Notes: generated from the letters alone by a model not told the origin. Shown: positions 8,371-63,370, counted from the first letter of the stretch. The stretch: DNA of 64,000 nucleotides from an uncultured Candidatus Rokubacteria bacterium (GCA_963708025.1 CAVPSB010000016.1:320001-384000), one strand, 5' to 3'. Numbers and translations: made by a program.

Positions 8371-8550
8371 TCACGCTCGGGGCGGGGCCGAGAAGCGAGC
8401 AGCGCCCAAAGGCCGAAGGCCGTCAGATCGACGCAGGGAGTCGCTGACCGCAGGCGTACTCCTAGTACGCCGAGGATCGGCGACGACCCCAAAGGCCGAA
8501 GGCCGTCCGAACGACGACGCGATGCGAAGCTTATCGGCCCCGCCCGCTAG
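8371..8550. repeat. Intergenic element family A, copy 1
   Basis: Ends GGGCGGGGCCGA / TCGGCCCCGCCC; homologous to 24992-25090 and 27991-28186. Confidence 0.85.
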
Positions 8551-12568: not shown

Positions 12569-12721
12569 TCAGTTCGGGACCTCCCGCCCACCCCCCCAGC
12601 CCCCCTCCATCTGACCGGATCGCCGGGACGGCTCGGGCCTACGGCCCTCGCGACGTCCCGCCCTCCGGCGGCCACCGGGGGGAGGGGGGAGTCGGAGGCC
12701 CCATTGCTTCACACGCTCTCA
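12569..12721 (-). mobile_element. Intergenic element family B, TGA-flanked, inserted at the stop codon of the MBL gene
   Basis: TCA at both ends on +; matches 15404-15540 and 63098-63247. Confidence 0.75.
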
Positions 12722-14180: not shown

Positions 14181-14630
14181 ATGCTCTCCGCGGTCGTCTC
14201 GGCGCTGCACCTGCTGGCCCTGGCCATCGGCCTGCCCGCCGTCTTCTTCCGCGCCCGTGCCCTGAAGGGGTCGCTGGACGACCGGAACCTGGCCCGCCTC
14301 TTCGCCGCCGACAACCTCTGGGGCCTCGCCGCGCTGCTGTGGATCGCGACCGGCCTGCTGCGCGCGTTCGGTGGCCTGGAGAAGGGAACCCCCTTCTATC
14401 TCGCCTCGGCGTTGTTCTGGACGAAGATGGGCTTGTTCCTGGCGGTCGCAGCCCTCGAGATCTGGCCCATGACGACATTCATCCGCTGGCGCGGCCAGCG
14501 ACGCCGAGCCGAGCGGCTCGACACCGCGCCGGCCCGCGCCCTGTTCGTCGTCAACCACGTCCAGATGGCGCTGGTGGTGGCGATCGTGTTCGTGGCCAGC
14601 TTCATGGCCCGGGGCTTCGGGCTCCGGTAG
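14181..14630 (+). CDS. DUF2214-family membrane protein
   Basis: DNLWGLAA..GLLR..EKG..FY..FWTKMGLF..E.WP pattern. Confidence 0.8.
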   Translation: MLSAVVSALHLLALAIGLPAVFFRARALKGSLDDRNLARLFAADNLWGLAALLWIATGLLRAFGGLEKGTPFYLASALFWTKMGLFLAVAALEIWPMTTFIRWRGQRRRAERLDTAPARALFVVNHVQMALVVAIVFVASFMARGFGLR

Positions 14631-14698
14631 CGAGGGGTGCCAGGTCAAAGCAATCATCGCGGGGCCGGGACCGAGCGATGATAGTCTCTGGCGGACAC

Positions 14699-15304
14699 AT
14701 GCCCGCACTGCGGCTCTCCCTCGGCGTCATTCTCACCTCCCTGGGGGCCGCCATCCTCGTCGCGACGCCGGCGGTCGCCTTCGACGGCGACGAGGCATTC
14801 CGGAAGGGCGTCCTCGTGCTTTCGGTGGAAGCCGGGGGCGGCCATCAGGACAACCTGGTGGGCGCCGCGCTCAGCGACCTCGAGCTCACCAACGGGGGCA
14901 TGCGGCTCGGCCTGATCCCTTTCGGCCCCTGGCTCAGCGGTCCCGCCCGCGCGGCGCTCGAGGTCGGTCTCGAGCCCTTCTTCCAGCAGTACCGGAACCC
15001 GGACGCCCGCTTCGGCGGCCTCGGGCTCTTGCTCCGGTACCACTTCCTGGCTCTCGGCCGGGTGGTGCCCTACGTGGAGCTGTTCGGGGCCGCCGGCGCC
15101 TCCGACCTGAACATCCCGGAGATCGACTCGACGTTCACCCTGATGGCCCAGGGCGGGGTCGGCGCCTCCCTGTTCCTGACGGACCGGATCGCGCTCTACG
15201 CCGGCTACCGGCTCCAGCACGTGTCGAACGCTCACACGAGCCGGGCGAACCGCGGCTTCGAGGCGCACCTCGGCATCGCCGGCGTTTCCATCTTCTTCCC
15301 GTGA
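14699..15304 (+). CDS. Acyloxyacyl hydrolase / PagL-like outer-membrane beta-barrel
   Basis: Signal peptide; YRLQHVSNA H-x-S-N catalytic motif; aromatic C-terminus. Confidence 0.8.
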   Translation: MPALRLSLGVILTSLGAAILVATPAVAFDGDEAFRKGVLVLSVEAGGGHQDNLVGAALSDLELTNGGMRLGLIPFGPWLSGPARAALEVGLEPFFQQYRNPDARFGGLGLLLRYHFLALGRVVPYVELFGAAGASDLNIPEIDSTFTLMAQGGVGASLFLTDRIALYAGYRLQHVSNAHTSRANRGFEAHLGIAGVSIFFP

Positions 15305-15403
15305 GCCGTCGGCCGTAGCGCGACCACGGCGGGATCCGGGCACGGGACGGCCGGCGATCCCGATCGCCGCCGGCGTCGCCGCGAGGCCCGGAGACTCATC
15401 AGG

Positions 15404-15540
15404 TGAGAGCCCGTAAAGGAATGGGTCCTCCGACTCCCCCCTCCCCCCGGCCAAGGGCCGGAGGCCGTCCATGGGTGGGGGAGGAGGGTCAAAGGCCGAA
15501 GGCCGTCGACGAATCGGGTGGGCGGGAGGTCCCGAACTGA
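15404..15540 (+). mobile_element. Intergenic element family B, inserted in the apparent original lnt start codon
   Basis: TGA at 15404-06 and 15538-40; left end GAGCCCGTAAAGGAATGGG, right end GGGAGGTCCCGAAC. Confidence 0.78.
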
Positions 15541-17174
15541 GGCGCCTGCTGGGCCAGGTGCTCGAGGAGGCGCGGGCGCGCCCGCGGGCCTTCGCGGCCG
15601 CGGCGGTCTCCGGCGCGCTGCTCGCGACGCCCACCCTCTTCCCCTGGTGCTGGCCGCTCGCGTTCGTCGCCCTCGTCCCCTACCTCGACGCCTTCCGTCC
15701 GTTCACCCGCGACGGCCGGAGGCGGACCGGCGTGCTGCTCACGCTGACCATGGCGGTGGTCTGGTACACGAGCAGCGGTTACTGGCTGTTCTCGCTGGTG
15801 CGCTACCACTGGACGGCGTGGCTAGCGGCGCTCGTCATCATCGGCCTGGGGCTGAGCGAGGTCGTCCTGCTCCCGCTCTCGGTCCGCTTCGTCCACCGCC
15901 GCCTGGGCGTGGCGCCGGCGCTCTCGATCCCGTTCGCCTGGATCACCATGGAACGCCTGCGCTGGCTCGGCGACCTCTACTTCCCCTGGTTCGACCTCGG
16001 CTACGACCTGGCCTCGGTCCCGCTCCTGGTCCAGTTCGCCGACGTTCTCGGCGTGTCCGGAGTCGGCTTCTGGATCGTGACGGTGAACGTGTGCATCGCC
16101 GAGCTCTGGGCGCATCCATCAGACCCGCGGCGGAGGCTCGTCCGGGCGGCCGCGCTCGCCGTTGCGGTGGGGCTTCCCCTGCCCTACGACTTCGTCGCCT
16201 GGGCCCGCCACGACCCGGCCCGGGGGGAGGCCGCTCGCACGCGGGTCGCCCTCGTCCAGCCGAACATCCCGCAGCAGCTCAAGTGGGACACCGCCACGCG
16301 ACAGGAGGTGGTCACGAAGGTGCGCGCGGTGACCGAGGCGGCGGCTGCCTCCCGCCCCGATCTGCTGGTTCTCCCCGAGTCGGCGGTCCCGCTCCTTCTC
16401 CGCACCGACGGGACCCAGCTGTACACGACGGACATGACCTCGGTGGCGCGGGTCGTCGGCGACCCGGGGGTGCCGCTCCTGGCGGGCGCCTTGACCGTCG
16501 AAGGGCGGTGGCCGGCGTTCCAGTTCACCAACTCGGCCTTCCTCTACGATTCCGGCGGGACGCAGGTCGGCCGCTACGACAAGACCCGCCTGGTGCCGAT
16601 CGTGGAGGCGCTGCCCCACCCGCGCCTCCTGGGCTGGGTGACCTGGCTCGCCAGCACGGCCGTCGTCTCGCGCTGGCTGTCCGCCTACGTCGGCCTCGGG
16701 TTCGCGAGCCTGCGCCCCGGCCAGGAGCCGGCCGTGATCCGGCTCGACGGGCTCCCGCCCCTCGGCGTCCTCATCTGCTACGAGTCCATCTTCCCCGACA
16801 TCGCGCGAGAGGAGCGGCGGCAAGGGGCGCGTCTCCTCGTGAGCATCTCCGACGACGCCTGGTTCGGCGAGACCGCCGCCCCCTACCAGCACGCCGCCTT
16901 CCTCGCGTTGCGCGCGGTCGAGAACCGGATCTGGGTCGTCCGCGCCGCCAACACCGGGATCTCCGCCGTCTACGACCCGCGCGGCACGGTGGTCGCCCGC
17001 ACTCGCCTCGGGACCCGGGACGTCCTCAGGTCCGAGGCGGCCCCCGCCGGCCCGCCGCCGCCGTTCACGCGCATGCGCTGGGACCCGACGGTGACGCTCT
17101 GCTTGGTCGTCACCGCCGGACTCGTCGGCACGGCGTGGCTCGCCGGCGCGCGGCGCCGCCGCCCTGATGGCTGA
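15537..17174 (+). CDS. lnt: Apolipoprotein N-acyltransferase; start uncertain (CTG 15537 or GTG 15558)
   Basis: TM N-half, VQPNIPQ, LPESA, YDKTRLVP, LICYESIFP, RAVENR, RAANTGIS. Confidence 0.92.
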   Translation: MRRLLGQVLEEARARPRAFAAAAVSGALLATPTLFPWCWPLAFVALVPYLDAFRPFTRDGRRRTGVLLTLTMAVVWYTSSGYWLFSLVRYHWTAWLAALVIIGLGLSEVVLLPLSVRFVHRRLGVAPALSIPFAWITMERLRWLGDLYFPWFDLGYDLASVPLLVQFADVLGVSGVGFWIVTVNVCIAELWAHPSDPRRRLVRAAALAVAVGLPLPYDFVAWARHDPARGEAARTRVALVQPNIPQQLKWDTATRQEVVTKVRAVTEAAAASRPDLLVLPESAVPLLLRTDGTQLYTTDMTSVARVVGDPGVPLLAGALTVEGRWPAFQFTNSAFLYDSGGTQVGRYDKTRLVPIVEALPHPRLLGWVTWLASTAVVSRWLSAYVGLGFASLRPGQEPAVIRLDGLPPLGVLICYESIFPDIAREERRQGARLLVSISDDAWFGETAAPYQHAAFLALRAVENRIWVVRAANTGISAVYDPRGTVVARTRLGTRDVLRSEAAPAGPPPPFTRMRWDPTVTLCLVVTAGLVGTAWLAGARRRRPDG

Positions 17175-18904: not shown

Positions 18905-18928
18905 CTGGACCTCGCCCGGGAGGCCGCG

Positions 18929-19035
18929 CTAGTGCCGTTCCAACTTGTTCCAGCTACTGCTTTCGAGGAATGCGGCAAGTCCGTGCTTCAAGAATCGCTT
19001 GCCCATTTGGGCCCAGGTAGTTGGAACGGCACTAG
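18929..19035. mobile_element. MITE family C, copy 1
   Basis: Perfect terminal inverted repeat CTAGTGCCGTTCCAACT / AGTTGGAACGGCACTAG; second copy at 53268-53359. Confidence 0.85.
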
Positions 19036-22240: not shown

Positions 22241-24994
22241 ATGCGCATCGACGACATCCACGGGGCCGGCCGCGGCCGGGTCCATTCCCGACTGCTCCTC
22301 CTGGTCACCCTGCTCCTGGTCGCCGCAGTGGCGACGGCCACCGCCCAGGCCCCGGCTCCGGCACCTCCCCGCCCGGGTCCGGCGCTGACCGCCGGGATCA
22401 GCGAGACCGTCCTGCCCAACGGGCTCCGGGTGCTGACCAAGGAGGTGCGCAGCGCGCCCGTCGTGAGCTTCAGCGTGTGGTACAAGGTGGGCTCCCGCAA
22501 CGAGCACACCGGGATCACCGGGGTGTCGCACCTCCTCGAGCACATGCTGTTCAAGGGCACCCAGCGGTACCGGGTCGGGGAGATCCCCCGGACCCTGTTC
22601 CTCAACGGCGCCGCCTTCAACGCCAGCACCTACTACGACTGGACCAACTACTACGCGACGGTCGCCTCCGACCGCCTCGAGCTGGCCATGCAGATCGAGG
22701 CCGATCGGATGGTGAACAGCCGGATCGACAAGGCCGACCTCGACTCGGAGATGACGGTCGTCCGCAGCGAGCTGGAGGGCGGGGAGAACAGCCCGGGCCG
22801 GCTCCTGTGGCAGGCGGTGACCGCCACCGCGTTCATGGCCCATCCCTACCAGTGGCCCGTGATCGGCTGGCGGAGCGACGTGGAGAACGTGCCCCGTGAA
22901 CTGCTCTACCGCTACTACAAGACCCACTACGGCCCCAACAACGCCACGGCGGTGATCGTCGGCGACTTCGACACCCGGAAGGCGCTCGAGCTGGTCCGCA
23001 AGCACTTCGGCGCGCTCAAGCCCATCCCGGCGCCGGCGCCCGTGTACACGGTCGAGCCGCCCCAGCGCGGCGATCGGCGGGTGACCGTGGAACGGTCCGG
23101 CTCGCTCCCGATGGTGATGGTGGCCTACAAGGCGCCGGCGGCCAACCACCCGGACGCCTACGGGCTCGACGTGCTGGCCATGGTGCTCGGCGAGGGTCGC
23201 ACCAGCCGGCTCTACCAGGGGCTGGTCGAGAAGCAGATCGCCTCCAGCGCGGACGCCGGCATCCCGAGCCTCCGCGACCCCTTCCTCTTCTACGTGAGCG
23301 CCACCGCCCGGCCCGGGGTCACCCCCGACAAGGTGGAGGCGGCGCTGCTGGACGAGGTGGAGCGGGTCAAGACGACGCCGATCACCGCCGACGAGCTCGG
23401 CCGGGCCAAGAGCCGGGTCGAGGCGGAGTTCGTGTTCCAGGCCGACAGCGTGACGTCCCAGGCCCGCCAGATCGGGTACTGGGCGATGGTGGACGACTGG
23501 CGCTACCTGACGACCTACGTGGACCGCATCCGGGCGCTCACGCCGGACGACGTCCAGCGGATGGCCCAGAAATACCTGGTGGCGGACGGGCGGACCGTCG
23601 GCCACTTCATCCCGACCGCCGGCGGCGCGCCGGCCGGGGCGCCGCCCAAAGAGGGCTCGGCGCGGGTCGAGAAGGCCAAGCGGGGCGAGCGGCAGATCCC
23701 GCTCCCGAGCCCCTCGAAGACCCGCCCGGCCAGCCGGCACGTCACCCGGTTCAGGCTGGCGAACGGCCTCTCGGTCGTGGTCCAGGAGAACCCGGCGAAC
23801 GCGACCTTCGCCCTCCGCAGCACCATCCCGGCCGGCGGCATCGTCGAGCCGCGGGACAAGCCCGGGGTCGCGTCCCTCACCGCGTCGATGCTGAGCCGGG
23901 GCACCGAGAAGCGGAACGCCCTCGAGTTCGCCACCGCCCTCGAGAACGTGGGGGCCAGCCTCGGCGCCAGCGCCAACGCGCTGGCCACGATGGTCACGGC
24001 CCGGGCCCAGAGCAAGGACTTCGACCTCGTGATGGACCTGCTGGCCGAGATGCTGCGGCAGCCGACGTTCCCGGCCGACGACCTGGAGCGGCTGAAGGGC
24101 CGGGTGCTGGCCGGCCTGGCCCAGGAGAAGACCGACCCGGACCGCCTCGCCGGCCGCGCGTTCGAGCGCGCCGTGTACCCGCCCGGCCACCCGCTCCGGC
24201 CGGAGACGCTGGAGCAGGCGCAGCAGGCGATCACGGCCACGACCCGCGACGACATCGAGCGCTTCTATCGCCAGCAGTACGGGCCGGACCGGATGATCCT
24301 CGTGATCGCCGGCGACGTGAAGGCCGACCGCGTCCGGCAGGCGCTCGAGGCGCGACTCGGGGTCTGGCCCCGCAACCCCGATTCCACGCCCCTCTCGACC
24401 CCGGACGTCCCCCTCCAGGACAAGGCCGAGCGGATCGCGATCCAGGTCCCCGACCGGAGCCAGACGGCGATCGTCTGGGGCCACGCGGGCGGCCTCCGGC
24501 GGAGCGACCCGGACTTCTACGCGACCCAGATCTTCAACCTGGTCCTCGGGGGAGCGGGCGCGCTCAACAGCCGGCTCGGCAACGTCATCCGGGACGACAT
24601 GGGCCTCGCCTACACCGTGTACAGCTTCTACGACGCCAACCTCTACCCCGGGCCGTTCGAGATCGTGCTGGGCACGAACCCCGCCAACGCCCAGAAGGCG
24701 ATCGACGCCATGCTGGCGGAGGCCAAGCGGATCCGGGACAAGGGCATCACCGAGCGCGAGCGTGCCGAGGCAGTGGCGTATCTGACCGGACGGTTCCCGC
24801 TCCGGCTCGAGACCAACGCCGGCGTGGCCGACATCCTGTGGACGATGGAGTTCTACACCCTCGGCCCCGACTACATCGACCGGTACGCCGACTACTACCG
24901 CGCCGTCACCGTCGCCCAGGTCAACGAGGCGGTCCGCCGGCACCTCCATCCCGATCGCGCCACCCTGGTGCTCGCCGGGACGCTGCCCGAGTAG
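22241..24994 (+). CDS. M16 (pitrilysin-family) zinc protease, fused two-half form, exported
   Basis: VGSRNE..GVSHLLEHMLFKGT inverted HxxEH motif; second half lacks it; signal peptide. Confidence 0.93.
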   Translation: MRIDDIHGAGRGRVHSRLLLLVTLLLVAAVATATAQAPAPAPPRPGPALTAGISETVLPNGLRVLTKEVRSAPVVSFSVWYKVGSRNEHTGITGVSHLLEHMLFKGTQRYRVGEIPRTLFLNGAAFNASTYYDWTNYYATVASDRLELAMQIEADRMVNSRIDKADLDSEMTVVRSELEGGENSPGRLLWQAVTATAFMAHPYQWPVIGWRSDVENVPRELLYRYYKTHYGPNNATAVIVGDFDTRKALELVRKHFGALKPIPAPAPVYTVEPPQRGDRRVTVERSGSLPMVMVAYKAPAANHPDAYGLDVLAMVLGEGRTSRLYQGLVEKQIASSADAGIPSLRDPFLFYVSATARPGVTPDKVEAALLDEVERVKTTPITADELGRAKSRVEAEFVFQADSVTSQARQIGYWAMVDDWRYLTTYVDRIRALTPDDVQRMAQKYLVADGRTVGHFIPTAGGAPAGAPPKEGSARVEKAKRGERQIPLPSPSKTRPASRHVTRFRLANGLSVVVQENPANATFALRSTIPAGGIVEPRDKPGVASLTASMLSRGTEKRNALEFATALENVGASLGASANALATMVTARAQSKDFDLVMDLLAEMLRQPTFPADDLERLKGRVLAGLAQEKTDPDRLAGRAFERAVYPPGHPLRPETLEQAQQAITATTRDDIERFYRQQYGPDRMILVIAGDVKADRVRQALEARLGVWPRNPDSTPLSTPDVPLQDKAERIAIQVPDRSQTAIVWGHAGGLRRSDPDFYATQIFNLVLGGAGALNSRLGNVIRDDMGLAYTVYSFYDANLYPGPFEIVLGTNPANAQKAIDAMLAEAKRIRDKGITERERAEAVAYLTGRFPLRLETNAGVADILWTMEFYTLGPDYIDRYADYYRAVTVAQVNEAVRRHLHPDRATLVLAGTLPE

Positions 24995-25090
24995 CGGGCA
25001 GGGCCGATGAGCGTCGCATCGCGTCGTCTGCGGTCGGCGACTCCCTGCGTCCTAGCGCTGCTCGCTCCTCGGCCCTGCCCGACAGCGTGA
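24992..25090. repeat. Intergenic element family A, copy 2 (short form)
   Basis: Ends GGGCAGGGCCGA / TCGGCCCTGCCC; starts at the TAG stop of the M16 gene. Confidence 0.85.
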
Positions 25091-26070: not shown

Positions 26071-27993
26071 GTGGTCTACCCTTCCCCTTTGAGTATGTGG
26101 CGACGTAGCCGGATCGGCCTCCTCCTGATCCTCGCGGCCGTCCTGCCCCGGCCGGGTGTCGCGGCCGACGCGCCTCCCGAGGTCCCTTCGCTGGCCGCCC
26201 GGGTGGCCGCCGGCGAGCTGCCCCCCCTGGCCCGCCGTCTCCCCGAGCGGCCGCTCGTCGTCCAGACGGAGACGGAGGCGACTTACGGGGGCGAACTGCG
26301 GACGCTGATCGGCACCCCCAAGGACTGGAAGCTGGCCTTCGTCTACGGATACGCGCGCCTGGTTCGATTCGACACGGACTATCAGATCGTTCCCGACATC
26401 GCCGAGCGCTTCGAGGTCAAGGACGGGGGCCGGAGCTTCACGTTCTACCTGCGAAAGGGCCACCGCTGGTCGGACGGCGCCCCGTTCACGAGTGCCGACT
26501 TCGCCTACTGGTGGAAGCACGTGGCCCACGAAGAGGAGTTGTCGCCGGGAGGCCCCCCGACCCTCCTTCTCGTCGACGGCGAGGAGCCGACCGTCGAGTT
26601 TCCCGATGCGTGGACGGTGCGGTTCCGCTGGTCGAAGCCCAACAACCTCTTCCTGCTCGATCAGGCGGGCGCCTACCCGACCCTGCTCTACCGGCCGGCC
26701 CACTACCTCAAGCAGTTCCACAAGGCCTTCACCGATCCGGAGAAGCTCAAGAAGATGGCGAAGGCCGAGCGGCGTCGGAACTGGGCGGCACTCCACAACA
26801 AGCGCGACGCGCTGTACGTGATGGACAACCCGGAGATGCCGACGCTCCAGCCGTGGCGGCCGTCGGTGGCGCCGCCCGCCGACGTCGCCCCCGCCCAGCG
26901 GAATCCCTACTTCCACCGGGTGGACCAGCGTGGCCGCCAGCTCCCCTACATCGACCGTCTGGTGCTGGTGCTGGCCGACCGGGCCGTGATCTCGGTCAAG
27001 GCGTCAACCGGCGAGGCCGACCTCCAGGCGCGCTATCTCTCCTTCGACCAGGTCTCGTTCCTCAAGCGGAACGAAAAGAGCGCCGGCTACCGGGTCCACC
27101 TGTGGTCCACCGCCTCGAGCTGCTCGGTCTGTCTCTACCCCAACCTCACGACGGCCGACCCGGTGATGCGGGAGCTCCTCCTGGACCGGCGCTTCCGGCG
27201 CGCGCTGTCGCTGGCCATCGACCGCGACGAGATCAACAAGATCCTCTTCTTCGGGCTGGGTGTCATCGGGCAGAACTCGGTCCTCCGGAGTCCCGCCACC
27301 CAGGAGGACCCGCGGATGGCCTTCGCGAGGTTCGACCCGGCCCAGGCCAATCGGCTGCTCGACGAGATGGGGCTGAGAAGTCGCGACTCGAGAGGCTTCC
27401 GGCTCCGCCCCGACGGCAAGCGCCTGGACATCATCGTCGAGACCAGCGGCGAGTCCACCGAGGAAGTCGACGTGCTGGAGCTGATCGCCGACACCTGGAA
27501 GCAGATCGGCATCGAGCTCCTGATCCGCCCGAGCCAGCGCGAGGTCTTTCGCCGCCGGGTGTCATCGGGCGAGGCGGTCATGAGCGTGAGCCACAGTGAC
27601 CTCTTCGGGCTGCCCACCCCCGACATGAGCCCCATCGAGCTGGCCCCGGTGAACTCCATCCACCTCCAGTGGTCCCAGTGGGGGCTCTGGTACGAGACGA
27701 AGGGCAAGAGCGGGGAGGAGCCGCCGCCGGCCGCGCGCCGGCTGGTCACCCTCTACGACCGCTGGCTCCACTCGACGGATCGGGACGAGCGGGCCCGGGT
27801 GTGGGGGGAGATGCTCGACATCAGCGCCGAGGAGCTCTTCACCATCGGCATCCTCGGCGGGACGCTCCAGCCCGTGGTCGTGAAGACCGGTCTCCGGGGC
27901 GTGCCCGAGAACGGGGTCTACGCCTGGGACCCCGGCGCCCACTTCGGGGTCTACAGCCCGGACACGTTCTACTGGCAGGGCGGCCGCCGCTAA
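26071..27993 (+). CDS. ABC transporter substrate-binding protein, family 5; start uncertain (26071 or 26095)
   Basis: GELPPLARRLPERP, LRKGHRWSDGAPFTSAD, RNPYFHRVD..QLPYID. Confidence 0.9.
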   Translation: MVYPSPLSMWRRSRIGLLLILAAVLPRPGVAADAPPEVPSLAARVAAGELPPLARRLPERPLVVQTETEATYGGELRTLIGTPKDWKLAFVYGYARLVRFDTDYQIVPDIAERFEVKDGGRSFTFYLRKGHRWSDGAPFTSADFAYWWKHVAHEEELSPGGPPTLLLVDGEEPTVEFPDAWTVRFRWSKPNNLFLLDQAGAYPTLLYRPAHYLKQFHKAFTDPEKLKKMAKAERRRNWAALHNKRDALYVMDNPEMPTLQPWRPSVAPPADVAPAQRNPYFHRVDQRGRQLPYIDRLVLVLADRAVISVKASTGEADLQARYLSFDQVSFLKRNEKSAGYRVHLWSTASSCSVCLYPNLTTADPVMRELLLDRRFRRALSLAIDRDEINKILFFGLGVIGQNSVLRSPATQEDPRMAFARFDPAQANRLLDEMGLRSRDSRGFRLRPDGKRLDIIVETSGESTEEVDVLELIADTWKQIGIELLIRPSQREVFRRRVSSGEAVMSVSHSDLFGLPTPDMSPIELAPVNSIHLQWSQWGLWYETKGKSGEEPPPAARRLVTLYDRWLHSTDRDERARVWGEMLDISAEELFTIGILGGTLQPVVVKTGLRGVPENGVYAWDPGAHFGVYSPDTFYWQGGRR

Positions 27994-28186
27994 CGGGCGG
28001 GGCCGATGAGCGTCGCAACGTTCATCTCGGCCCTCCGCCTACGGCCTCGCGTCCGTCCCGACCTATGGTCGTCCTCGGTCGTCGCCGATCCTCGGCGTAC
28101 TCGGAGTACGCCTCCGGTCGGCGACTCCCTGCGTCCTTCGGACGGCCTTCGGCCTCTGGGCGCTGCTCGCTCCTCGGCCCCGCCCC
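27991..28186. repeat. Intergenic element family A, copy 3
   Basis: TAACGGGCGGGGCCGA...TCGGCCCCGCCC; starts at the TAA stop; internal GGCGTACT-CGG-AGTACGCC hairpin. Confidence 0.85.
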
Positions 28187-41546: not shown

Positions 41547-41664
41547 CCCCGGCGGCGACCTACTCTCCCACGCCGTTACCAGCGCAGTACCATCGGCCCT
41601 GGAGGGCTTAACGACCGTGTTCGGGATGGGAACGGGTGTGGCCCCTCCGGTCTGGCCGCCGGGA
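41547..41664 (-). rRNA. rrf: 5S rRNA
   Basis: Reverse complement contains CCCATCCCGAACACGG and GATGGTACTG..TGGGAGAGTAGGTC. Confidence 0.95.
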
Positions 41665-41743
41665 AGCACCAGCCGTCTACGAGTCCCTCGAGTCGCCGTC
41701 CTGTCCACCCGTCGGATCGCCATCCGGCGGCGGAATCATCCGT

Positions 41744-44728
<2,985 letters not shown>

Positions 44729-44800
44729 ACGGATCCCTCCGTGGTCCGCCGAATGACTTCCGTCTCGTGTAGACGCTCTGGCTACTCGAGGTTCTCGTAT

Positions 44801-44817
44801 GCGGTTGTCAAAGAGCA
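44801..44817 (-). promoter_or_regulatory. BoxA antitermination site in the spacer
   Basis: TGCTCTTTGACAAC on -; a second copy GCTCTTTGACAGC lies in the leader. Confidence 0.7.
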
Positions 44818-44863
44818 ACTCGGAGCCCGCAGGCTCCCGAGCTTCTTCCATCCTCTCGGCACC

Positions 44864-44939
44864 TGGTGGAGATGACCGGATTCGAACCGGCGACCCCCTG
44901 CTTGCAAAGCAGGCGCTCTCCCAACTGAGCTACATCCCC
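44864..44939 (-). tRNA. tRNA-Ala (TGC)
   Basis: GGGGATGTAGCTCAGTTGGGAGAGCGCCTGCTTTGCAAGCAGG...CCACCA. Confidence 0.97.
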
Positions 44940-44946
44940 ACGTGGG

Positions 44947-45023
44947 TGGTGGGCCTAGGTAGAGTTGAACTACCGACCTCGCGCTTATCAGGCGCGCGCT
45001 CTAACCACCTGAGCTATAGGCCC
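44947..45023 (-). tRNA. tRNA-Ile (GAT)
   Basis: GGGCCTATAGCTCAGGTGGTTAGAGCGCGCGCCTGATAAGCGCG...CCACCA. Confidence 0.97.
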
Positions 45024-45109
45024 CCAAAGGTGGGAAGATTAATGCTACTGGCTCGCGCGAGTGGTGATCGACCCAGTCGATCGGGCAGTGGGTCACCCCA
45101 CCCCCCCGA

Positions 45110-46677
<1,568 letters not shown>

Positions 46678-46716
46678 ACCTCTCTCGGACCTCAAGGGCA
46701 TGCACACCGTCTCGGT

Positions 46717-47581: not shown

Positions 47582-48331
47582 ATGGTGCTCCAGGAAGAGT
47601 CGATCGACCTCGCCACCGCCACCGGACCCATGCGCACCTACGTCTACCGGCCGGTCGCGCCGGGTCGCCATCCGGGCCTGATCTTCTACTCGGAGATCTT
47701 CCAGCGAACCGGTCCGATCAAGCGGGCGGCGGCCATGATGGCGGGCCACGGCTTCGTCGTCGCGGTGCCCGAGATCTACCACGAGCTGGAGCCGGCCGGC
47801 ACCGAGCTGCCGTACGACCCCGCCGGGACCGAGGCGGGCAACCGTCACAAGGTGGCACGGCCGACCTCGGTCTACGACGACGACGCGCGCGCCGTGATCC
47901 GTCACCTGGCTTCCCTCCCCGCCTGCACCGGCCGGCTCGGCGCGATGGGGATCTGCATCGGCGGGCACCTCGCCTTCCGGGCGGCGCTCAACCCCGAGAT
48001 CCGGGCTGGCGCCTGCTTCTACGCGACCGACCTCCACAGCCGGAGCCTGGGCCAGGGCGGCGACGACACGCTGGAGCGGGCGGGGGACATCCGCGGCGAG
48101 ATGCTGATGGTCTGGGGCCGGCAGGACCCGCACATCCCGGTGGAGGGCCGACTCCTCATCTACCAGCGCCTGACCGCCGCCGGCGTCAACTTCACGTGGC
48201 ACGAGTTCAACGGGGCCCACGCCTTCATGCGGGACGAGGGCGCCCGCTACGACCCGGCGCTGGCCCTGATCGGGTACCGGCTGGCCATCGACCTGTTCGC
48301 CCGCACGCTGGCGATGGGAGGAACATCGTGA
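47582..48331 (+). CDS. Dienelactone hydrolase family
   Basis: SEIFQ, GICIGG, QDPHIP, HAFMRDEG. Confidence 0.92.
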   Translation: MVLQEESIDLATATGPMRTYVYRPVAPGRHPGLIFYSEIFQRTGPIKRAAAMMAGHGFVVAVPEIYHELEPAGTELPYDPAGTEAGNRHKVARPTSVYDDDARAVIRHLASLPACTGRLGAMGICIGGHLAFRAALNPEIRAGACFYATDLHSRSLGQGGDDTLERAGDIRGEMLMVWGRQDPHIPVEGRLLIYQRLTAAGVNFTWHEFNGAHAFMRDEGARYDPALALIGYRLAIDLFARTLAMGGTS

Positions 48332-49237
48332 AGCTCGGCATCTGCATCCCGCACTACGGGCGACCGATCGAGGTCGGGCGCCTCTTCGGGGTCGTGCGCC
48401 GCGCCGAGGAGCAAGGGCTGGACTCGGTGTGGGTGACCGACCACGTCATCGTGCCGCTCGACGCCAACGTGATCTACCGGGAGCACATGCTCGATCCCCT
48501 CGCCGTCCTCCCGTGGCTCGCCGGCGTGACGGAGCGGATCGCGCTCGGCACCAGCGTGGTGATCCTGCCCTATCGCTCGCCGATCCCCGTGGCCAAGCTG
48601 CTTGCCAGCGTGGACGTGCTGTCGGGCGGACGCCTGATCGTCGGCGCGGCGATCGGCTGGCTGGAGGGCGAGTTCGACGCGCTGGGAGTGCCGTTCAAGG
48701 AGCGCGCCAGCCGCTCGGACGAAGCCCTCGAGCTGTTCCGGACCCTCTGGACCCAGGACCGACCGGCGATCGAGACCCGACGCTACCGCGTCCACGACGT
48801 GCAGGTCTCCCCGATGCCGCTCCAGAAGCCGCGCCCGCCGCTCTACATCGGCGGCAGCAGCGAGGGCGCCTTCCGGCGGGTCGCCCGGCTGGGCGACGGG
48901 TGGCACGCCACCGCCTCGACACCCGAGGCGCTTCCGCCAGGGGGCCGACGCCGTGCGGCGCTTCTGGAAGGAGGCGGGGCGTGAAGGAGAGCCGGTCTGG
49001 TCGCTCCGCATCCCCGTCCTCATCGACGGCATCCATCGCCCGGCCGTCGACATGACGCTGATGCGTGGCCGCCACGCGATCGCGGGCCCGGTGACGAAGG
49101 TGACCGAGGAGCTGCGAGCCTTCCAGGCGCTCGGCGTGAGCCACGTCGCGCTGGAAGTCTCCTATTCCACCTACCCGGCGATCCTGGAGACGATCGACAT
49201 CCTGGCTGACAAGGTGAAGCCGCAGCTCGGGAGCTGA
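48328..49237 (+). CDS. LLM-class (luciferase-like, F420/flavin) oxidoreductase, frameshift near 48935
   Basis: DSVWVTDHV, LGTSVVILPYR, DVLSGGRL, RVARLGDGW. Confidence 0.9.
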
Positions 49238-49254
49238 TAAGAAATCGGTTGTCC

Positions 49255-49336
49255 GGCACCCCCTCCCCCCGCCAAAGGCCGAAGGCCGTCGAACGGTGGG
49301 GGAGGGGGGCCGCGGTGGGGGCGGGAGGTCCCGAAC
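49255..49336 (+). repeat. Partial family B element
   Basis: CCCCCTCCCCCC..GGTGGGGGAGGGGGG..GGCGGGAGGTCCCGAAC; left end missing; contains the nested hairpin module. Confidence 0.65.
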
Positions 49337-53249: not shown

Positions 53250-53267
53250 CGTCCGCTGACCTGGCGG

Positions 53268-53359
53268 CTAGTGCCGTTCCAACTTGTTCCAGCTAGTGCT
53301 TTCGAGGAACACAGTGCGCGCATCGTCTATCTTGGCTCATGTAGTTGGAACGGCACTAG
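53268..53359. mobile_element. MITE family C, copy 2
   Basis: Same 17-bp terminal inverted repeat; right CTAG overlaps the TAG stop of the M4 gene. Confidence 0.85.
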
Positions 53360-62588: not shown

Positions 62589-63101
62589 TCAGCCCGGGCG
62601 GCGGGCCCGACCGACCGCGAAGGCGAGGGCCTGAAGGGCCATGAGCGCCGCGCCCACGGGCACCGCCAGGTAGACGAGCCCCATCGGGAGACCGAGTGCC
62701 GGCGAGACCTGGCGCATGGTGCGCAGCGTCAGTGCCACCCCCTGCCAGGCGAGCACGGCGAGGAACAGGGCGCTCAGGAGGTACGCGACGAGCCGGACGA
62801 GCCGCCCGGCGGCCGGCGGCAAGAGGTCGGGCAGCACGTCGACGGCCGCGTGGGCCCCCCGCTCGAAGGCCACCGCGCTCCCGAGCATGACCAGCCAGAT
62901 GGTGGTGAAGCGGGCCAGCTCGTCGGTCCAGTGGAGCGACCCGCCGAGCACGCCGAAGTACCGCACCGCGACCGCCAGCAGGACGGCCGTGACGAGCACA
63001 ACCAGCGCCGCGTTGGTCAGATAGCGCACCGCCGCCAGGACCCCGGCGTAGGCGCGCTCGAGCCCGGCTGGTGCCCCCGAGGCCCCGTTGGATGATGTCA
63101 G
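62589..63101 (-). CDS. dctQ: TRAP transporter small permease; start displaced by insertion (CTG 63101, or GTG 63029)
   Basis: WTDELARF..W..MLG, H.AVD, SPALGLPM..YLAVPVG; frame open to 63101. Confidence 0.88.
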   Translation of the reverse strand: MTSSNGASGAPAGLERAYAGVLAAVRYLTNAALVVLVTAVLLAVAVRYFGVLGGSLHWTDELARFTTIWLVMLGSAVAFERGAHAAVDVLPDLLPPAAGRLVRLVAYLLSALFLAVLAWQGVALTLRTMRQVSPALGLPMGLVYLAVPVGAALMALQALAFAVGRARRPG

Positions 63102-63247
63102 TTTGGGACCTCCCTCCTACCCCCCCAACCCCCCTCCCCCACCCACCGGGGGGAGGCGGGAGTCGGAAGACCCATTGCTTCCACACGTTCTCAGTTCCGA
63201 ACCTCCCTCCTACCCCCCGGAGCACGCCATTCCTTCACATGCTCTCA
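63098..63247 (-). mobile_element. Two tandem family B elements in the apparent original dctQ ATG
   Basis: TCA on + at 63098, 63191 and 63245 delimits two related units. Confidence 0.75.
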
Positions 63248-63269
63248 TCCCGACTCGACAGTCCTAGCC

Positions 63270-63362
63270 GCTCCCTCTCCCTCCCTCTGGAGGGAGAGGG
63301 CCAGGGTGAGGGTGGTGCCGATGCATCTCCCCCTACCCTCTCCCCCGAGGGGGAGAGGGTAG
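63270..63362. repeat. Two REP-like palindromes
   Basis: CTCCCTCTGGAGGGAG-centred unit and TACCCTCTCCCCCGAGGGGGAGAGGGTA. Confidence 0.65.
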
Positions 63363-63370
63363 AAAGGGTG

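Follow-up and report, generated by a model that had tools for sequence, protein, structure and literature searches.

A TGA-flanked miniature element at the start codons of lnt and dctQ in an uncultured Candidatus Rokubacteria bacterium

Genes and features at the locus

The stretch of DNA considered here, hereafter the window, comprises 64,000 nucleotides from an uncultured Candidatus Rokubacteria bacterium (GCA_963708025.1, CAVPSB010000016.1:320001-384000) and has a G+C content of 71%. Within it lies lnt, the gene for apolipoprotein N-acyltransferase, recognized by the LNT_N (E 9.4e-21) and CN_hydrolase (E 9.4e-31) Pfam domains of its product and by its homologs, and preceded by a PagL-like gene (14339-15304). 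On what was in all likelihood the original start codon of lnt there now sits a copy of a small repeated element, flanked on each side by TGA. A preliminary description of the locus had proposed that the element carries its own Shine-Dalgarno (SD) sequence and a CTG start codon, and that it thereby mitigates the damage done by its insertion. The analysis reported here added two features that were absent from that description, namely an in-frame ATG preceded by GGAGG within the element (at 15471) and a second start-codon insertion, at the transporter gene dctQ.

A family of elements with unlike ends

Window-wide searches, made as Hamming and nhmmer scans with two motifs from both of which TGA was absent, returned four complete copies of the element and one decayed copy, and no others (Table 1). 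TGA flanks both sides of all four complete copies, including the pair at 15404 and 15538, to which the preliminary description had drawn attention and which stands 134 bases apart. With 30-mers from each element end, 100 shuffles gave no chance matches, and the element is a genuine repeat family, not a product of chance. Its bodies span 51-147 bp and are non-coding and multicopy, as would be expected of a miniature transposable element with inverted repeats (MITE). The interiors are variable, combining C-rich and G-rich arms with a separate 18-nt module.

In one respect, the element does not look like a MITE. As the preliminary description had stated, its ends are not inverted repeats of each other: GGGAGGTCCCGAAC on the right is unrelated to GAGCNNGTRAAGSAATGG on the left, and a terminal inverted repeat (TIR) is absent. 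Only a subterminal 9-bp arm pairs across the ends, GGGNCCTCC with the right-end GGAGGTCCC, in the predicted folds of copies A, B, and C2. Duplication of a target of fixed length is, on the other hand, apparent, both from the TGA/TGA flanks and from the restoration of two start codons on excision of the element together with one TGA. The complete copies occupy three loci, two of which are NTGA start codons and the third a stop codon. A rough count finds 604 TGA and 649 TCA in the window, with 25 of 42 crude gene calls ending in TGA, figures that serve only qualitatively because the gene calls leave 14.6 kb uncovered.

Table 1. Positions of the element copies and of features at the lnt and dctQ loci, with energies of duplexes formed with the anti-SD tail of 16S rRNA. 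ORF, open reading frame.
Feature	Position	Strand	Anti-SD energy (kcal/mol)	Remarks
Copy A	15404-15540 with TGAs; body 15407-15537	+		Body of 131 bp; on lnt start
Copy B	12569-12721; body 12572-12718	-		Left TGA (12719-12721) is native stop of MBL-fold hydrolase gene
Copy C1	63191-63247; body 63194-63244	-		Tandem with C2; TGA 63191-63193 common to both
Copy C2	63098-63193; body 63101-63190	-		Tandem with C1
Copy D	49238-49336	+		Right end intact; left end decayed and truncated; right flank AGT
Copy A, left TGA	15404-15406	+		Target-site copy
Copy A, left end GAGCCCGTAAAGGAATGG	15407-15424	+		Starts GAGC; matches TIR (18 bp) of canonical MITEs from other phyla
Copy A, subterminal arm GGGTCCTCC	15423-15431	+		Predicted pairing with right-end GGAGGTCCC (RNA folds of A, B, C2)
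Copy A, variant 18-nt module CAAAGGCCGAAGGCCGTC	15452-15469	+		A-to-G change creates GGAGG 15460-15464
Copy A, in-element ATG	15471-15473	+	-9.5	lnt frame; 6 nt after GGAGG 15460-15464
Copy A, right end GGGCGGGAGGTCCCGAAC	15520-15537	+	-12.8	SD-like GGAGG 15525-15529
Copy A, right TGA	15538-15540	+		Second target-site copy; also stop of 45-codon upstream ORF
Right ends of five copies			-12.8 to -16.8	SD-like in 5 of 5
Right ends of canonical relatives			-0.3 to -4.3	
Old lnt SD-like GGAG	15390-15393	+	-6.6	9 nt upstream of old GTG
Old lnt start GTG	15403-15405	+		Now heads 45-codon upstream ORF through element
lnt	15537-17174	+		Read from junction CTG; Pfam and homologs
lnt junction CTG	15537-15539	+		lnt frame; 7 nt after GGAGG 15525-15529; overlaps right TGA
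Downstream in-frame GTG	15558-15560	+	-5.6	Alternative lnt start; closest listed ortholog annotated from there
Old dctQ SD			-5.1	
dctQ junction CTG	63099-63101	-		dctQ frame
dctQ as annotated	62589-63029	-	-6.2	Starts at GTG 63029; energy for region upstream of this GTG
18-nt module sites	8407, 8490, 15452, 15490, 17268, 28141(-), 49273			

Insertion into two start codons

When nucleotides 15407-15540 are removed from the sequence, what remains reads GGAG-N9-GTG AGG CGC CTG, in the frame of lnt. The preliminary description had arrived at the same restored start, which stands, with a spacer of eight nucleotides, which is corrected here to nine; it had also described correctly the frame from the old GTG (15403), which runs through the element and, after 45 codons as counted here, stops at the TGA (15538) that overlaps the junction CTG (15537). 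The insertion has parted the old SD sequence and GTG from the lnt reading frame.

Close homologs of the protein are few: only four of the 120 matches listed share at least 77% identity with it, and one of these (P0005, 77%, 332 amino acids) is partial. The preliminary description had counted orthologs that begin at the downstream GTG (15558), together with empty sites without a single TGA, against its reading, and on the first of these points the orthologs are divided. P0003 (83% identity) begins VRRLAGFVLEE at the position of the restored GTG and P0004 (78%) begins MSRPGLGRVLDE, one residue before it, whereas P0002, at 95% the closest of those listed, is annotated from the position of GTG 15558.

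The second case is provided by copies C1 and C2, which lie in tandem in the spacer that separates the TRAP transporter genes dctP and dctQ (assigned by Pfam) and split the ATGA start of dctQ, the A of which is now at 63248. Excision of both copies with two of the three TGAs yields gggATGACATCATCC, in which an ATG stands in the dctQ frame (ATG ACA TCA), and the ortholog P0122 (89%, 170 amino acids) begins MRSSDG exactly at the column of this restored ATG. A short way upstream of the split start, the same spacer (63250-63370, minus strand) also contains a pair of hairpins rich in CT/GA, CCCTCTCCCCCTCGGGGGAGAGGG and CCCTCTCCCTCC..GGAGGGAGAGGG.

Taken together, we consider the insertion of the element into start codons to be well supported. 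The opposite view, that nothing was inserted and that the sequence before lnt is an old structured leader since lost from its relatives, is hardly credible: the element recurs at unrelated genes with identical flanks, and its removal restores start codons at the start positions of orthologs in two genes.

Translation of lnt and dctQ after insertion

The 16S rRNA tail of this organism ends GAUCACCUCCUUUCU and contains CCUCC. The energies in Table 1 are those of duplexes with this tail and may be set against positions sampled from the window, the mean of which is -5.19 kcal/mol. On this scale, the right end of copy A is matched or beaten by 1.7% of the sampled positions and that of C2 by only 0.14%. 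The claim that the right end (GGAGG-N7-C), joined to the duplicated TGA, makes a CTG in the lnt frame is borne out, and an SD-like right end is common to all five copies.

A more conventional signal lies further upstream, within copy A itself. The ATG at 15471 would give an Lnt protein of 567 amino acids with 22 extra N-terminal residues. Its SD-like sequence falls in the 18-nt module, of which the window holds seven copies, five of them exact. Six of the seven read GAAGG and only that of copy A reads GGAGG, so the GGAGG upstream of the ATG is a derived change; the ATG itself is absent at the corresponding place in copy D. The appearance of a canonical start within copy A would fit compensation after insertion, and this ATG is our preferred candidate for the present start of lnt.

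It is likely that initiation at lnt is now supplied by the element itself. Among the three candidate codons, we lean tentatively toward ATG 15471; GTG 15558 is possible, if less probable, and CTG 15537 is rather unlikely. The proposal is, then, that lnt would be translated from signals inside the element, foremost from the copy A-specific GGAGG-N6-ATG, and that the CTG formed at the right junction may act as a second, weaker start. In that event, the upstream ORF, which runs from the old GTG to the overlapping TGA, could unfold the hairpin by which the right-end SD sequence is hidden and so help the CTG.

Several observations weigh against this proposal. The pairing of SD sequence and ATG may be fortuitous, since it involves a single in-frame ATG in a G-rich element. 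A CUG start yields 1-2% of the product of AUG in Escherichia coli, according to the available text of one study (10.1101/063800), and the predicted folds place the right-end SD sequence within a stem; for both reasons CTG is disfavored at lnt. The folds themselves surpass their shuffled counterparts only for copy B (z -2.96; copy A, -0.65). The closest listed ortholog is, as described above, annotated from GTG 15558, the more distant homologs P0007-P0010 have 16-19 residues before an invariant Gly, which is the length expected of a start at that GTG, and the evidence for the restored starts is at the protein level, depending on ortholog N-termini picked by gene callers. Finally, the Pfam DctQ domain begins downstream of GTG 63029, the annotated start, and a truncated protein may therefore remain functional.

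The situation at dctQ differs from that at lnt. The frame of the old ATG stops after 12 codons, such that no run-through ORF of the lnt type is present, and in the dctQ frame there is no canonical start codon between the TAG at 63117-63119 and GTG 63029, which leaves CTG 63101 as the sole candidate that keeps the conserved N-terminal segment. In each of the 17 DctQ orthologs aligned, 10 residues or more precede the position of GTG 63029. In an AlphaFold2 model (mean pLDDT 73.7), helix 1 is made up of residues 12-49, counted from the junction CTG, and a start at the annotated position, residue 25, would cut it. The junction CTG would accordingly be the main start candidate at dctQ, and use of CTG is more plausible there than at lnt. 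The window's own DctQ record (P0123, 146 amino acids), which starts at GTG 63029, falls 24 residues short of the orthologs, probably a mis-call brought about by the element.

These data bear on two other explanations of how the genes are translated. According to the first, a portable ribosome-binding site (RBS) is provided by the right end and CTG 15537 is the working start of lnt, possibly coupled to termination of the upstream ORF, such that the element mitigates its own insertion into NTGA. GGAGG-N7-CTG does occur at the right junction of all four complete copies, with the strong duplex energies noted, and the right-end 18-mer is identical in three of the five copies (A, B, and D), against 4 mismatches in 18 positions between the left ends of A and B. 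Start codons account for two of the three loci at which complete copies lie, no near-cognate codon other than CTG 63101 occurs upstream of the conserved dctQ segment, and coupling through overlapping stop and start codons is a known mechanism (PMC6728339, in its available text). Set against this are the canonical SD-ATG pair that precedes CTG 15537 by 66 nt in the same frame, the low yield of CUG starts, the predicted pairing of the SD sequence, the early stop of the old frame at dctQ, and a basis of two loci known from sequence. We therefore regard this explanation as doubtful. Of the rescue through CTG that had been proposed, the SD-like right end is retained; the use of CTG at lnt is less likely, ATG 15471 being the better candidate there.

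A bolder form of the same idea would have a MITE lineage exchange one of its terminal repeats for a portable RBS, such that each insertion into NTGA rebuilds an in-frame SD-CTG start. Both this exchange and the "self-mitigating" design that it implies are conjectures to which we give little credence. Were the exchange to have occurred, the old start would become that of a short leader ORF, and the element, selected as "start-codon-safe," could colonize gene starts and retune the translation of the genes that it hits.

The second explanation is that the element is merely tolerated, with lnt translated from GTG 15558 and dctQ from GTG 63029 and the SD-like end a by-product of a G-rich hairpin. 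The annotations of P0002 and P0123, the N-terminal length of the distant Lnt homologs, and the intact Pfam domain of the shorter DctQ all agree with it. The annotations are, however, not independent evidence, because gene callers ignore CTG; both GTGs have weak anti-SD energies, near the window mean; and the segment upstream of GTG 63029, which forms part of predicted helix 1, is kept in 17 of 17 DctQ orthologs. It, too, is doubtful, about as much so as a portable RBS.

Searches for other signals were unproductive. A promoter and terminator scan of 15150-15700 gave no sites, and Rfam returned only rRNA and tRNA from the whole window, with no match for the element; in 15300-15650, the highest-scoring entry was an miRNA model of hairpin shape, whose 24.1 bits stayed below the cut-off of 55.

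Relatives of the element and its mobilization

A scan of genome contigs with the left-end pattern produced 67 single matches, which is about the number expected by chance, and among these, which did not include the source genome, were eight canonical MITEs (L001, L017, L019, L026, L040, L041, L062, and L066), the remainder being treated as chance. These MITEs are 98-239 bp long, carry the 18-mer in inverted form, with 1-4 mismatches, at their far end, and are hosted by Planctomycetota, Chloroflexota, Proteobacteria, and unclassified metagenome-assembled genomes (MAGs). Their flanks are TGA/TGA in four cases, GGA/GGA in two, and TGA/TAA and TGA/TGC in one each, the right flank thus equaling the left in six of eight. 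The left flanks are biased to NGA because the pattern forced GA before GAGC, and the right flanks were free; that the two change together indicates a 3-bp target duplication. An ORF of 319-605 codons terminates at the left TGA in three of the eight.

The window element shares with these canonical MITEs its 18-bp type of left end, its 3-bp and mostly TGA flanks, and its small non-coding body. It differs in that they end in an inverted left end and have no SD-like right end, whereas its own right end is unrelated, G-rich, and SD-like. The family thus falls outside the TIR definition, having kept the left end with a right end unrelated to it.

Elements of the IS1031 group have ends that begin GAG and a duplication of TNA, and the preliminary description had likened the window element to them. 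The left end lends support to that suggestion, being of the same kind as the 18-bp TIR of MITEs that duplicate 3 bp in other phyla, and points to mobilization in trans by a DDE transposase of the IS5/IS1031 type. A 3-bp duplication is likewise shared with this group of the IS5 family, for which the available text of PMC2516522 gives a three-nucleotide insertion site as a group feature. The right end does not conform, as only the left matches the TIR of the canonical relatives; this lack of an inverted repeat on the right, together with the failure to find a transposase or full-length copy, leaves membership of the group unproven.

These last points also tell against the mechanism that we favor. 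For the use by a DDE transposase of a right end that does not repeat the left in inverted form there is no ready explanation, and the 40 window ORFs scanned against Pfam include no transposase, nor was an autonomous copy found. Two long candidates, L044 and L050, in which a weakly matching inverted end lies at a distance of 772 and 1345 bp, showed no transposase-like ORF when their translations were inspected by eye, without a Pfam scan. BLAST against plasmids gave no match for a canonical relative and, for the window element, a single 35-nt chance match.

The asymmetry of the ends brings to mind an enzyme specific for strand or orientation, such as an HUH enzyme of the IS200/IS605 type, which would insert the element 3' of TGA and for which the terminal TGA would be borne by the element. 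The single orientation of all four complete copies relative to the TGA strand and the predicted hairpins of the body are in keeping with this, and the window copies taken by themselves fit either model. The left end, however, matches a true TIR of symmetric elements, and the relatives' flanks co-vary as TGA/TGA or GGA/GGA, as duplication gives and an element-borne end does not; the Pfam scan of the 40 window ORFs detected neither TnpA nor TnpB. We judge such an enzyme improbable. An identity as REP or REPIN sequences was rejected in view of the defined 3-bp flanks, the asymmetric left end, and the lack of a RAYT among the scanned ORFs. To our knowledge, none of the mechanisms of IS91, IS110/IS1111, or IS607 fits a 3-bp flank combined with a TIR-type left end.

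The explanation that we favor as a whole, and consider slightly more probable than not, joins insertion, IS5/IS1031-type transposition, and an lnt start borne by the element. A non-autonomous miniature transposon would have inserted into TGA with duplication of these three nucleotides, the TGA hit at lnt being one that overlapped the start codon (GTGA); translation of lnt would have passed to ATG 15471, and that of dctQ, which has no canonical alternative upstream of its conserved N-terminal segment, mainly to the junction CTG.

Neighbors of copies B and D and other repeats

Beside copy B, the MBL-fold hydrolase and its eight closest other orthologs listed (85-97% identity, P0250 being at 85%) are all 279 amino acids long with the same C-terminal region, a length shared by 68 of the 120 matches listed. 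P0250 and the Lnt ortholog P0003 are both listed with a longest contig of 13,090 bp and may be encoded on a single contig. The MBL-fold protein of the window is also 78% identical to one from a Methylomirabilota MAG. Copy D is located between two convergent gene ends. Near it, an ORF on the plus strand (48196-48984) has a luciferase-like monooxygenase match that covers profile positions 21-197 of 314 only, and a further ORF (48953-49237), which is read in another frame, extends as far as the TGA adjoining copy D; the two may represent a frameshift or a split gene.

Other repeats are present in the window. The hairpin-forming 18-nt module CAAAGGCCGAAGGCCGTC has 7 occurrences where 0.13 would be expected, inside both this element family and a second one and once alone, ~90 nt past the lnt stop, and seems to be a small mobile or recombining unit of its own. 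The second miniature-element family has the ends GGGGCGGGGCCGAGRAGCGAGCAGCG ... CTYATCGGCCCCGCCC, with copies at 8379-8549 (plus strand), 27993-28186 (minus), and 24993-25080 (minus); it exists in long and short versions, with 93% complementarity between two of its copies over 110 nt. A third, MITE-like family of low G+C content (18928-19035 and 53267-53355) has near-perfect TIRs, CTAGTGCCGTTCCAACT...AGTTGGAACGGCACTAG, both copies being on the 5' side of minus-strand genes. At 1044-1582, four overlapping 215-nt direct-repeat copies with 108-bp spacing lie within an ORF on the minus strand that matches DUF948 weakly, and a complete rRNA operon, consisting of 16S, two tRNAs, 23S, and 5S, occupies 41547-46678 on the minus strand.

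Comparison with known systems

Small mobile repeats are usually thought to persist only between genes, and lnt is essential in many Gram-negative bacteria. The element described here occupies the starts of lnt and of a transporter subunit gene, and both reading frames are still intact. If it does supply new starts, it shows that translation starts can tolerate, and be retuned by, a transposon; it shows repeat sequence turning into a coding N terminus; and it explains misplaced automatic annotation, such as the DctQ record cut by 24 residues. The asymmetry of its ends, in turn, raises the question of the enzyme that mobilizes it. The literature searched contains no account of a TGA-duplicating element with one TIR-type and one SD-like end, of such an element on the start codons of conserved genes, or of the TIR sequence.

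Parts of this picture have precedents. At lnt, the 45-codon ORF and its TGA overlapping the junction CTG have the geometry of ATGA termination-reinitiation, as set out in the available text of PMC6728339, with the differences that the restart codon would be CTG in place of ATG and that the arrangement is absent at dctQ. The BOX repeats are also small and interspersed and overlap gene ends; they supply the stop codon of 36 pneumococcal genes, and boxC can supply the start codon of expressed ORFs (PMC3049150). As far as the available text of that study goes, BOX elements are modular, have no defined target duplication, and create, through the starts that they supply, new ORFs without a good SD sequence rather than taking over the start of a conserved gene. 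That repeats can supply stop and start codons and that MITEs alter the expression of their neighbors is, then, already known. The Correia elements of Neisseria and other MITEs are non-autonomous, generate short duplications, and carry regulatory signals to adjacent genes; those of the Correia type bear TIRs, target TA, and exert their effects chiefly by way of promoters and RNA processing. In contrast, the signal carried by the element in the window is translational and lies on the start codon itself.

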